DNA of 28,583 bases from Candidatus Thorarchaeota archaeon (GTDB lineage Archaea > Asgardarchaeota > Thorarchaeia > Thorarchaeales > Thorarchaeaceae): positions 1-28,583 of the forward strand of contig JBHLRS010000040.1 in the NCBI GenBank assembly GCA_048882325.1, in the 5' to 3' direction. Of this stretch, positions 3,237 to 13,744 are shown piece by piece. Under the pieces are notes generated by a model, which had not been told where the DNA came from, ran no database searches, and saw only the letters and a program-made list of their open reading frames with translations. Numbering within the stretch: the stretch's first letter is position 1; each line of letters starts with the position of its first letter. The translations under genes were made by a program, and so were the position numbers.

Positions 3237-3878
3237 ATGCAACCCAGTTTACTGCCACTGATTAGATTGGACCTACTCTTTGAGGTATTCAGTGGTATAA
3301 TTGCACTCATCGTGACCATATTTGCCACCAAAGCATACAATCTGACAGGGCAGAAGAAACTCCAAGATCTCTCAACAGGATTCCTTGTCCTTTCTGCAGG
3401 GATGTTTGGGAGAGTAATAGGAACGTGGTATTTCATTGTCCAGTTTGGACTAACGGACCCCTCAGGTCTTCTGATTTTTTCGATTGTCACGATAGCATAT
3501 GGTGTTTCCAGAATAATGGCGTATGTACTCTTCGTGATAGCAACAAGACCAGCACGTCACCGAGGACCTGTCAACAATGAGGACATGAATGGTCTAGATC
3601 TACTTCTTATAGCCACCGTACTTGTGGATCCCAATTTAGAGGTCATTGCAATACTCGTCCTCATTGTGGTTGTTCTTCAAGCAGTTGTAAACTACATTTC
3701 AACACGCAGTGAGTTAGCATTCTTTGTACTACTTGGATTCTTTCTCATTCTTTTGAGTCATATACTGGTTGCTCAGACTTTTGCGAATCCTACAATGTAC
3801 CTATCAAGTCAGCTGACTCAATTCTTAGGTTTCTTGTCACTACTGGTCATGCTAGTAAGGGCAGGCAGAGTAGAATGA
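3237..3878 (+). CDS. multi-pass membrane protein (about 6-7 TM), function unknown
   Basis: Multiple hydrophobic segments, AGGAG Shine-Dalgarno upstream, ATGA overlap with the downstream wHTH gene. Confidence 0.8.
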   Translation: MQPSLLPLIRLDLLFEVFSGIIALIVTIFATKAYNLTGQKKLQDLSTGFLVLSAGMFGRVIGTWYFIVQFGLTDPSGLLIFSIVTIAYGVSRIMAYVLFVIATRPARHRGPVNNEDMNGLDLLLIATVLVDPNLEVIAILVLIVVVLQAVVNYISTRSELAFFVLLGFFLILLSHILVAQTFANPTMYLSSQLTQFLGFLSLLVMLVRAGRVE

Positions 3879-4168
3879 GTAGAAAACGGGCCTATCGCTC
3901 AAAGATGCGCATCCTAGCTGATATGATGCGTGCCATCCAGAGTGAGGGTGAGGAAGGATGTGGTCCGACTAAGATACTCTACGCCGCGAATCTCTCACAT
4001 GACCGATTGACACAGTATCTCGATGAACTGGTTGAGAAAGATCTAATTCGAGAAACGAATCCTGAGAATGACAATAGAGTATATTTCCTCACTGAGAAGG
4101 GCAGGGAGTTTCTCAGAGAGTTCATCAGAATAGAACGTTTCTCCGAGGCTTTTGGAATCGAGATCTGA
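3875..4168 (+). CDS. winged helix-turn-helix transcriptional regulator (archaeal COG3432-like)
   Basis: Pattern RSKMRILADMM...PTKILYAANLSH...YLDELVEKDLI...YFLTEKGREFL is typical of this archaeal wHTH family. Confidence 0.88.
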   Translation: MSRKRAYRSKMRILADMMRAIQSEGEEGCGPTKILYAANLSHDRLTQYLDELVEKDLIRETNPENDNRVYFLTEKGREFLREFIRIERFSEAFGIEI

Positions 4169-4183
4169 CTCACTGTAGTAGAC

Positions 4184-4194
4184 AAGGTTTTAAG
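4184..4194 (+). promoter_or_regulatory. BRE/TATA promoter of tRNA-Ala
   Basis: AAGG-TTTTAAG about 30 nt upstream of the tRNA 5' end. Confidence 0.55.
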
Positions 4195-4221: not shown

Positions 4222-4328
4222 GGGCCGGTAGATCAGACTGGTAGATCGTCTGATTCGCATTCAGAAGGTCGCGAGTTCAATGGGTTTAGGGCTACCCTAA
4301 ATCCGAACAAATCTCGCCCGGTCCACCA
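4222..4328 (+). tRNA. tRNA-Ala(CGC) with 30-nt intron (4281-4310) at non-canonical T-loop position 58/59; CCA encoded
   Basis: Acceptor GGGCCGG/CCGGTCC with G3:U70, D-stem GATC/GATC, anticodon arm TCTGA-TT-CGC-AT-TCAGA and T-stem GCGAG/CTCGC. Removing 4281-4310 restores T-loop TTCAAAT. A BHB motif is present and the 3' end is ACCA. Confidence 0.93.
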
Positions 4329-5470
4329 CTACTCTTTCTTGGTTTGACTAGGGCCAATATCAGAAGAGCGAAGATAGTAAGTATGAGTGAGTATTGAAAC
4401 GCAATGGTTGGTGCGGTAGGGTCCCATAGATAACCAAAAGCAAGACCTGCAGGAAAAGCAGCTATACCAACAGCCATCTGAAAGGCCCCGATTATACTTG
4501 CACGTCGTTCCTCCTCAACTAGGTCTGCAACAAAACTTGTCTGTACTGGATCGAGAGCACCATTCACCAGACCAAAGAATAAGAACATGGGAATAATCAT
4601 GGATTGGACAGTTACCAGATAAACCCAAGCGGAAGTCAGTATCAGGAAAACGAACGCCATGGTCATGACCATTTTTCTACCAACTTTATCAGATAACCAC
4701 CCGAACGGATATGCAGACACAGCATAGACCACTACGAATAGTAAATAGAGGAGTGCCTGTTGTTCAACTGTGAATCCTAAGTTAGCTGAGTAAAGTATCA
4801 AGAGGGAGTAACTAAAGGTTGCTAGAGCAAAAAGAACTGATGCGACAAGGAACAGCTTCAGGTTTCTGTCAAGTCCACGAAAGCTAACCCCCTTGAAAAC
4901 ATCTTTCCCGCGTTTCTCCTTCACCAGGGCTGTCACGACAATCACTGAACCAGCGGTGGGAATTGAGGCAAGCAGGATGATTCCAGTGTATCCAATAATT
5001 TGGAAAAGGAGGAGTGTTATGATTGTCCCAAGGACAGCCCCTGCTGTGTCAAGTGCCCTTAAAATGCCAAAAGCGCTTCCTCGTTCACCTTCAGTCACGT
5101 GTCCGGCGACGATCGCATCTCGTGGTGGTCCTCGCATTTTACCTAAGCGGTCTAATGATTTCCATAGGACGATCTGGAAGAACTGGTATGCATATGTAGC
5201 TAGAATGAAGCCAAGTCGGGCAAACATCGACAGACTATATCCTAGTGTAACGAACGCCTTTCTCTTTCCGGTGCGGTCTGAGGCATAACCAGCTCCCAGC
5301 TTCGAGAGTGAGGTGATTGTCAACGCGAGACCATCAACTATCTGCACTTGACCTTGAGTCAATCCAAGCTGAGTCGTGAGAAATGTAGGCCATATCGGTG
5401 CAATCATGTCCGAGCCTGTGTCATTTAGGAATGAGGCAGCACCGAAGATTAGAGCAGGATTTTGTTCCAT
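4292..5470 (-). CDS. MFS transporter
   Basis: About 12 hydrophobic helices, motif A in both halves (GYASDRTGKRK; GWLSDKVGRK), DRLGK..R.PPRDA motif. Confidence 0.92.
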   Translation of the reverse strand: MEQNPALIFGAASFLNDTGSDMIAPIWPTFLTTQLGLTQGQVQIVDGLALTITSLSKLGAGYASDRTGKRKAFVTLGYSLSMFARLGFILATYAYQFFQIVLWKSLDRLGKMRGPPRDAIVAGHVTEGERGSAFGILRALDTAGAVLGTIITLLLFQIIGYTGIILLASIPTAGSVIVVTALVKEKRGKDVFKGVSFRGLDRNLKLFLVASVLFALATFSYSLLILYSANLGFTVEQQALLYLLFVVVYAVSAYPFGWLSDKVGRKMVMTMAFVFLILTSAWVYLVTVQSMIIPMFLFFGLVNGALDPVQTSFVADLVEEERRASIIGAFQMAVGIAAFPAGLAFGYLWDPTAPTIAFQYSLILTIFALLILALVKPRKSSGGPGEICSDLG

Positions 5471-6851: not shown

Positions 6852-7292
6852 GTGAGTGATGAAGCAGAGCCTAGATATTACCCGGTCAGACTCGTTTGGA
6901 CAGGTGGCAAGAGTGGGGACCTCATCGTTGAGGGAAAGACTACAATCAAGACAGGGGTTCCTTCTGGTAGTCCAGAGGAAACAATTTTTCACTCTCCAGA
7001 GGATCTCTTTGTAGCATCAGCCACGATGTGCTACATGAATGGATTTGTGGAGTTCACAAGAAAGATGCGGATTGAATTCAAGTCCTTTGAATGTGACTCA
7101 GTAGGGACTCTTAAAAAAGTCGGAAGAAGTTTCGAGGTCACGAAGATAGAGATGAAGGCCAAAGTTGTGATACCTTCAGAGGACATCCGTAAGAGGATTG
7201 ACCGCGCTCTTGATCTCGCTGCGAAATATTGCTTCATTGCTAACTCTATGAAGAATGAAGTCACACATGAAACTCGAGTTCTTGTTGAATGA
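6852..7292 (+). CDS. OsmC/Ohr family protein
   Basis: SPEDLFVASATMC and KYCFIANS two-Cys motifs; GTG start with AGGTGA SD. Confidence 0.88.
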   Translation: MSDEAEPRYYPVRLVWTGGKSGDLIVEGKTTIKTGVPSGSPEETIFHSPEDLFVASATMCYMNGFVEFTRKMRIEFKSFECDSVGTLKKVGRSFEVTKIEMKAKVVIPSEDIRKRIDRALDLAAKYCFIANSMKNEVTHETRVLVE

Positions 7293-7344
7293 CACAACCA
7301 AATGCTTTTTCCAATGAGTGAGTCAGCAAATCACAGTGTTAGAG

Positions 7345-7779
7345 ATGTCAGACGACGTTCATGAGTACAAGGTTACAGTCGATTGGAAACATGGAAGAGT
7401 TGGAGATCTAACCATTGACGGAAAGCCCACAGTCGAGGTTGCATCGCCTCCTGAGTTTGACGGACCTGAAGGAATAATATCTCCAGAGGACCTATTTGTT
7501 GCAGCCGCGACTTCATGTTTTATGACAACGTTCGTGACCTTCAACAAGAAAATGCGTATCGAGTTCAAGTCATTCACATGCGAAGGTCACGGCACACTTG
7601 AACGTGTTGACAAGGGATTTCAGTTCACAAAACTCCTACTCAAAACAAAAGTAGGAGTTGAGTCTGAGGACCTTATTCCAAAGACTGAGAGAGCACTCGA
7701 ACTGGCTGGGAAATACTGTCTTGTTTCAAACTCGATGAAATGTCCAACTGAACACGAAAATGAGGTATTTGTTGAATAA
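7345..7779 (+). CDS. OsmC/Ohr family protein (tandem paralog)
   Basis: SPPEFDG...SPEDLFVAAATSC and KYCLVSNS motifs. Start placed at ATG 7345. Confidence 0.9.
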   Translation: MSDDVHEYKVTVDWKHGRVGDLTIDGKPTVEVASPPEFDGPEGIISPEDLFVAAATSCFMTTFVTFNKKMRIEFKSFTCEGHGTLERVDKGFQFTKLLLKTKVGVESEDLIPKTERALELAGKYCLVSNSMKCPTEHENEVFVE

Positions 7780-13626: not shown

Positions 13627-13744
13627 GCCGAGGTAGCCAAGCGGTCAACGGCGACGGACTCAAGATCAATCAATAGTCGCCAGACTCTGATGAGACATCC
13701 GTTCTCGTAGGGGTTCGGGAGTTCGAATCTCCCCCTCGGCACCA
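13627..13744 (+). tRNA. tRNA-Leu(CAA) with 32-nt canonical 37/38 intron (13665-13696); CCA encoded
   Basis: Acceptor GCCGAGG/CCTCGGC, anticodon stem ACGGA/TCCGT, long variable arm, T-arm GGGAG-TTCGAAT-CTCCC and ACCA end. BHB has CTCA/TGAG helix with AGA and ACA bulges. TATATT at 13596-13601 upstream. Confidence 0.96.

Follow-up and report, generated by a model that had tools for sequence, protein, structure and literature searches.

The tRNA-Ala(CGC) Locus

The window considered here, that is, the whole stretch of 28,583 nucleotides that was analyzed, carries a tRNA-Ala(CGC) gene interrupted in its T-loop, preceded by a putative promoter and conserved protein-coding genes and met from the opposite direction by the gene of an MFS transporter (Table 1). 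A scan for sigma-70 promoters returned nothing, as expected for an archaeon. Elsewhere in the window, a tRNA-Leu(CAA) gene (13627-13744) contains a 32-nt strict bulge-helix-bulge (BHB) intron in the anticodon loop and is found both by Rfam and by intron-allowing ARAGORN, and two tandem OsmC-like genes follow a methyltransferase and a DUF302 gene (6852-7779).

Table 1. Features of the tRNA-Ala(CGC) locus (positions in the window).
Feature	Position	Strand	Remarks
DUF7521-like membrane protein and wHTH genes, upstream	3237..4168	+	Conserved synteny anchor defining orthology
A/T-rich TATA-like box	4188..4194	+	About 30 nt upstream of the tRNA; congeners have one too; putative promoter
tRNA-Ala(CGC) 5' exon, positions 1-58	4222..4280	+	G3 at 4224, anticodon CGC at 4256-4258
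BHB 5' strand, comprising G53-C56 of the central helix and the first bulge (3 nt)	4275..4281	+	Predicted cut 4280/4281
30-nt BHB intron, position 58/59 (T-loop)	4281..4310	+	
10-bp intron hairpin (h') with 3-nt loop	4282..4304	+	Loosely matches the family-wide 30-nt design
BHB 3' strand, comprising the other half of the central helix and the second bulge (3 nt)	4305..4311	+	Predicted cut 4310/4311
tRNA-Ala(CGC) 3' exon, positions 59-76	4311..4328	+	U70 at 4322, discriminator A73 at 4325, encoded CCA at 4326-4328
MFS transporter gene (392 aa), convergent	4292..5470	-	Last codons antisense to the tRNA 3' end

Structure of the Intron and of the Predicted Spliced Product

Excision of positions 4281-4310 leaves 77 nt that ARAGORN calls as tRNA-Ala(cgc), with the G3:U70 pair, the discriminator A73 and an NGC anticodon in a 7-nt loop that are expected of a tRNA-Ala, as well as an encoded CCA. 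Around the junctions the precursor can adopt the archaeal hBHBh' arrangement, which comprises a 4-bp central helix (GTTC at 4275-4278 with GAAC at 4305-4308, all four pairs Watson-Crick) between two opposite 3-nt bulges (AAT, 4279-4281; AAA, 4309-4311), an outer helix (h) of 2 bp that can be extended past one mismatch, and an intron hairpin of 10 bp, including one G-U pair, in which 4282-4291 pair with 4295-4304 around the loop CTA. Cutting both bulges behind their second base would restore the tRNA. Four registers of excision yield the same mature sequence and the BHB forms solely in the 58/59 register. The 5' exon is identical to that of intron-free orthologs, and eight intron-free orthologs are letter-identical to the predicted spliced product, which fixes the junction independently of the BHB motif. 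The initial annotation had described the cloverleaf, its 30-nt interruption, the helices, bulges and hairpin of the BHB and the restoration of the T-loop by second-base cuts; every base and coordinate that it gave proved exact, and both the ARAGORN call and the eight orthologs bear out the restored T-loop.

The predicted fold of the precursor is unusually stable (z = -4.33; none of 200 shuffles was as stable). Among 100,000 shuffles of the letters of the intron, 3.2% produced a 4-bp central helix, 0.42% such a helix together with an inner helix of at least 2 bp, and 0.001% one with an inner helix of at least 9 bp. Neither a catalytic RNA core nor an internal ORF, as would mark a group I, group II or homing-endonuclease intron, is present in the 30 nt, which form a single hairpin and have no Rfam match.

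In its unspliced form the gene is not called by ARAGORN, which at a relaxed score gave noise alone, and it produces a partial, sub-threshold match to Rfam RF00005 (23.3 bits). The expectation that default annotation may miss this gene therefore holds for these two tools, but the description of the gene as hidden may not extend to tRNAscan-SE, since the introns called in a recent census of 90 Asgard genomes cluster in the anticodon loop and the T-arm (Goswami et al., 2026; bioRxiv 10.64898/2026.10.13.758758). Annotation based on ARAGORN or Rfam only undercounts the tRNAs of Thorarchaeia.

Splicing Machinery and Proposed Mechanism

The host is a member of the Thorarchaeota, in line with the Asgard origin suggested by the initial annotation, and the closest relatives of its splicing endonuclease all belong to Thorarchaeota, the top ones being 83-91% identical. 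The genome encodes RtcB and two EndA paralogs of 187 and 233 aa; the pair of EndA genes lies in the regions C26:39928-40182 and C76:5623-5883. The best match of the 187-aa protein is the alpha protein of Aeropyrum pernix, with which it aligns end to end (E 5e-46); it has Y125, H133, and K164 intact and includes the crenarchaeal-specific loop (CSL), with K42 aligned to A. pernix K44, and the 233-aa paralog lacks the catalytic His. The Thorarchaeota alpha protein thus has the same loop lysine and catalytic triad as the (alpha-beta)2 EndA of A. pernix (PDB 3P1Z/3AJV). Judged by its sequence, the enzyme belongs to the (alpha-beta)2 class with a CSL/L1 loop, for which both heterotetramer assembly and a broad substrate range are predicted; this classification agrees with the association of non-canonical introns with broad-specificity endonucleases noted in the initial annotation. 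Kaneta et al. (2018; PMC5829648), whose survey covered a Thorarchaeota genome, attributed the (alpha-beta)2 + L1 type to Asgard archaea and connected it with non-canonical introns.

The enzyme is probably put to wide use in this genome (G000): an nhmmer census of its tRNA genes, in which insert positions other than 58/59 were read by eye, located inserts at 37/38, within the D-loop and the variable region, near 53/54 (Ala-UGC, Thr-GGU, and Ser-CGA) and at 58/59 (the focal Ala-CGC, Pro-CGG, and Pro-GGG). The T-stem introns of Ala(UGC) (C8:78338-78445) and Thr(GGU) (C30:34303-34412) share the same position and have matching ends, and possibly form one family. ARAGORN also calls a tRNA-Sec (C26:31242-31332). 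In the case of the Pro(CGG) gene with the 58/59 intron (C25:30369-31195), a 3' copy that lacks the intron and differs in a T-loop base lies 700 nt downstream, and orphan tRNA 3' fragments occur downstream of Val, Thr, and Glu genes (C20:2655-2688, C20:40650-40671, C63:10832-10864, and C63:11240-11272); these orphan fragments are putative integration relics.

The mature T-stem pairs positions 49-53 with 61-65, and the BHB uses G53-C56 in its central helix along with the pairs 52-60 and 51-61; as both need the same bases, the two folds are mutually exclusive. The T-stem fold is predicted at -40.7 kcal/mol versus -35.2 to -36.7 kcal/mol for the BHB folds, and the central helix has a probability of about 5% in the predicted ensemble. 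With the BHB as a minor conformer, the enzyme must capture it or cut before the T-stem forms. These modeled energies back the earlier proposal that the T-stem has to refold for splicing. In the proposed mechanism the precursor would be mostly in the normal T-stem fold, with the intron hairpin bulging from the T-loop; a slip of the T-stem by two registers would then let G53-C56 pair with the end of the intron and A52-U60 and G51-C61 make up the short outer helix. This slipped conformer, 4-5.5 kcal/mol less stable by prediction, would presumably be captured by the enzyme, and the (alpha-beta)2 EndA with its CSL/L1 loop would cut after the second base of each bulge. RtcB would join the exons, whereby the T-loop would be restored and the T-stem would snap back. 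The intron is one of many hairpin introns of about 30 nt which Thorarchaeia probably acquire and shed at a small number of sites that permit a BHB, with 58/59 as a hotspot, and it is probably a near-neutral cargo.

Orthologs and History of the Intron

A search with the 5' signature of Ala(CGC) across 87 genomes of the order gave exactly one match per genome in 56 of them, the focal genome included. Half of these genes (28) are intron-free, 25 have an intron in the anticodon loop, one has it in the T-stem and two at 58/59, and all the inserts measure 29-32 nt. The second 58/59 gene belongs to the genome G021, whose intron is unrelated in sequence to the focal one and which groups with intron-free genomes in a tree of the upstream genes (99/99). 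A single origin of the two 58/59 introns was rejected, both on the forced grouping (AU p = 4e-51) and on their unrelated sequences. No copy of the focal intron within 3 mismatches occurs in the 87 genomes (its own and 86 relatives), and no intron-bearing Ala(CGC) was found among JGI metagenome contigs. The simplest history compatible with these sequences would be a recent gain on the branch of the focal genome; repeated loss elsewhere is less parsimonious. Gain at this locus looks recent and repeated, given that 28 of the 56 genes are intron-free and that two unrelated 58/59 introns lie on separate branches.

In intron-free congeners the MFS stop codon is the complement of the T-loop, the protein ending in GGPGEI-stop in four of them and in GGPGGN at the same place in a fifth. 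The focal gene instead stops at 4292-4294, a codon complementary to the intron loop; the MFS protein is five residues (CSDLG) longer through the intron, whose loop supplies the new stop. The idea that a stop within the intron loop has a significance of its own was considered and rejected, as the 30 nt are in frame and the old stop is still reachable. We take the shift for a harmless by-product that likewise favors gain over loss. The overlapping 392-aa ORF was likewise considered as an integrase spanning an att site, a candidate that was discarded since the ORF is the MFS gene.

Could the insert have simply inactivated the gene? In that case the decoding of GCG codons would fall to tRNA-Ala(UGC) or to a copy of the gene missing from the assembly. 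GCG ranks last among the Ala codons (5,955 of about 49,000), an Ala(UGC) gene is present, the draft genome is 93% complete and the splicing-competent BHB is the minor conformer, all of which a disrupted pseudogene would accommodate; GCG might be read by Ala(UGC), so the essentiality of Ala(CGC) is uncertain. Against this explanation, which we consider very improbable, the exons do not exhibit any decay and are letter-identical to intact orthologs, a strict BHB with such a hairpin arises in 1e-5 of shuffles and 102 genes from about 18 anticodon classes display this geometry. The separate intron-free Ala(CGC) gene that, according to the initial annotation, would speak for a pseudogene was looked for in the assembly and no such copy was found. 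Positions 4222-4328 very probably represent a functional, single-copy Thorarchaeota tRNA-Ala(CGC) gene that was recently interrupted at 58/59 by a 30-nt intron, the protein-dependent splicing of which is predicted from sequence.

Position 58/59 as a Hotspot

The 102 tRNA genes with 58/59 introns are distributed over 60 of the 87 genomes. More than 90% of these introns are 29-30 nt long, and the outer helix has at least 1 bp in all of them and 2-4 bp in nearly all; a reversed control pattern gave fewer than 20 scattered matches. About 12 genomes of other Asgard families contain 58/59 matches that look clean as judged by eye. Among the pattern matches of 58/59 hosts (L151-L247), 81 of 103 by raw count have G51-A52, with an A-U pair adjoining the T-loop. 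G51-A52 in these hosts would weaken the T-stem and strengthen the outer helix of the BHB.

One route by which the intron may have arrived is that it was copied from the corresponding site of a different tRNA gene, by gene conversion via the conserved T-arm or by reverse splicing, a type of copying that has been proposed for Thermoproteales. Counting identity solely over bases not dictated by the exon, 14 of 95 distinct 58/59 introns have a neighbor of at least 80% identity in a different tRNA type (25 at 75%), versus none at 80% and 0-2 at 75% in eight hairpin-preserving shuffles; the intron core of Pro(CGG) of the focal genome is 96% identical to that of Ala(UGC) of the congener G027. The shuffles, however, drop a loop-side motif that the introns share, so convergence may account for some of the likeness, and within single genomes an 80% partner exists for just 4 of 63 introns, in two pairs each confined to one amino acid. 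The focal intron itself has no 80% relative, its best match in another tRNA type (70%) falling within the null range. Copying is a serious possibility for the focal intron, with a likelihood slightly under even.

A second route starts from mobile elements. Inserts of 1-2.5 kb with a duplicated 3' end occur at tRNA-Ala(CGC) in the congeners G022, G026, G027, and G024 (L248, L250, L251, and L249). The working genes of G022 and G026 possess a new, insert-borne T-stem, the host-type T-arm being displaced beside the MFS gene; these two inserts carry a repeat-rich ORF of 450-490 aa and no integrase was seen in them. On the model of Sugahara et al. (2012; PMC3293823), a mobile cassette with its own T-arm would have integrated at the tRNA 3' half, and a subsequent recombination within the shared 3' 18 nt would have eliminated the cassette, leaving the intron behind. 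Besides the four inserts and the two replaced T-arms, this route is favored by displaced 3' copies at 6 of 42 genes with 58/59 introns, which in L281 and L282 are intron-free and have a different T-arm, and by the displaced-copy layout of Pro(CGG) in the focal genome. The focal locus, however, has no insert, cassette or displaced 3' copy, the MFS gene adjoining it directly, and 6 of 42 is no higher than the rate beside intron-free Ala(CGC) genes (3 of 16 in a non-exhaustive search); an enrichment of cassettes beside intron-bearing genes was rejected on these rates. Moreover, the att core was not found in the viral contigs of IMG/VR, and no mobile-element enrichment near gains was seen in the census (bioRxiv 10.64898/2026.10.13.758758). 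We regard the cassette route as conceivable, though tentatively and with the balance somewhat against it. The two routes are compatible, and for the focal intron both are conjectural.

The intron might also have been kept by selection, because it splits an attachment site used by mobile elements, an idea of Randau and Soll in the form in which it is cited in PMC3293823. The duplicated core of the G027 insert starts at the T-loop and spans 58/59, and the focal locus is free of inserts, as this idea would have it. Yet just 2 of 56 Ala(CGC) genes have a 58/59 intron, intron-bearing genes still have 3' duplicates downstream, and G021, the other genome with a 58/59 Ala(CGC) gene, has lost the MFS neighbor. 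Such a selective role seems unlikely.

Taken as a whole, position 58/59 of Thorarchaeia may be an actively cycling site where a uniform 30-nt hairpin intron moves between tRNA types, at least partly by means of T-arm-replacing cassettes, and the focal gene may be a fresh, cassette-free end product of this cycle in which the stop of an overlapping gene was displaced. We put this forward as a speculative reading that is rather less than evenly likely; it is based on the 58/59 family and not on the focal gene. If true, it would offer an arrival route where the Asgard census of 2026 found none, and the wider Thorarchaeia set in any case bears on how intron DNA enters tRNA genes.

Comparison with Known Systems

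Non-canonical tRNA introns, including those in the T-arm, have already been published for Asgard archaea, so that the novelty anticipated in the initial annotation does not stand. In three complete Asgard genomes 92-95% of the tRNA genes have introns, often non-canonical (Valentin-Alvarado et al., 2024; PMC11291895). According to Supplementary Data 4 of that study, the distance from the intron end to the gene end is 17 nt for many introns and 18 nt for two of them; in our own reading of the coordinates this corresponds to 59/60 and 58/59, respectively, if CCA is counted; a full-text literature search for the exact position 58/59 gave no match, and the prior report of this position is therefore based on these coordinates. 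In the census of Goswami et al. (2026) the strongest BHB signal was found at T-arm insertions, most gains were terminal and 44 of 60 genomes had two EndA paralogs. The introns are described as newly identified Asgard sequences, none of them shown to be spliced in a cell, and the arrival route of the intron DNA is named as the central open problem. The term 'Thorarch' is absent from the main text of this preprint.

The introns of these two studies resemble the focal one in their Asgard host, T-arm position, canonical BHB, likely gain on a terminal branch and the presence of two EndA paralogs. The lineages on which they center are Atabeyarchaeia and Jordiarchaeia, unlike the Thorarchaeota examined here, and almost no sharing between tRNA types was reported in them (within genomes), whereas the 58/59 introns of Thorarchaeia form cross-type families across genomes and have a narrow length of 29-30 nt.

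Thermoproteales (Sugahara, 2008; Fujishima, 2010), to the extent that they are covered by the citing article PMC4033280, are alike in having BHB introns that are short and occupy many positions, in their (alpha-beta)2 EndA with a CSL and in the occurrence of related introns across tRNAs. They differ in belonging to another phylum and in their within-genome sharing, which amounts to 28% according to the preprint versus the 4 of 63 introns in Thorarchaeia. In terms of a transposed family of the Thermoproteales type, the focal intron is in no close family, whereas other 58/59 introns reach the 80% threshold.

In Caldiarchaeum subterraneum, for which a gain of tRNA introns linked to mobile elements has been proposed (Sugahara et al., 2012; PMC3293823), the similarities are that intron presence varies among close relatives and that tRNA fragments flank inserts, which here is the case in relatives of the focal genome. 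The fragment in that organism is a 5' piece, whereas the displaced pieces described here are 3' ends and the focal locus has neither fragment nor recombinase.

The focal gene thus adds a further non-canonical BHB tRNA intron to a group for which such introns have been published. It provides a clean test substrate for cleavage by an Asgard splicing endonuclease, because its intron-free allele is known to the letter, its strict BHB is in competition with the T-stem and the EndA genes of its host have been identified.
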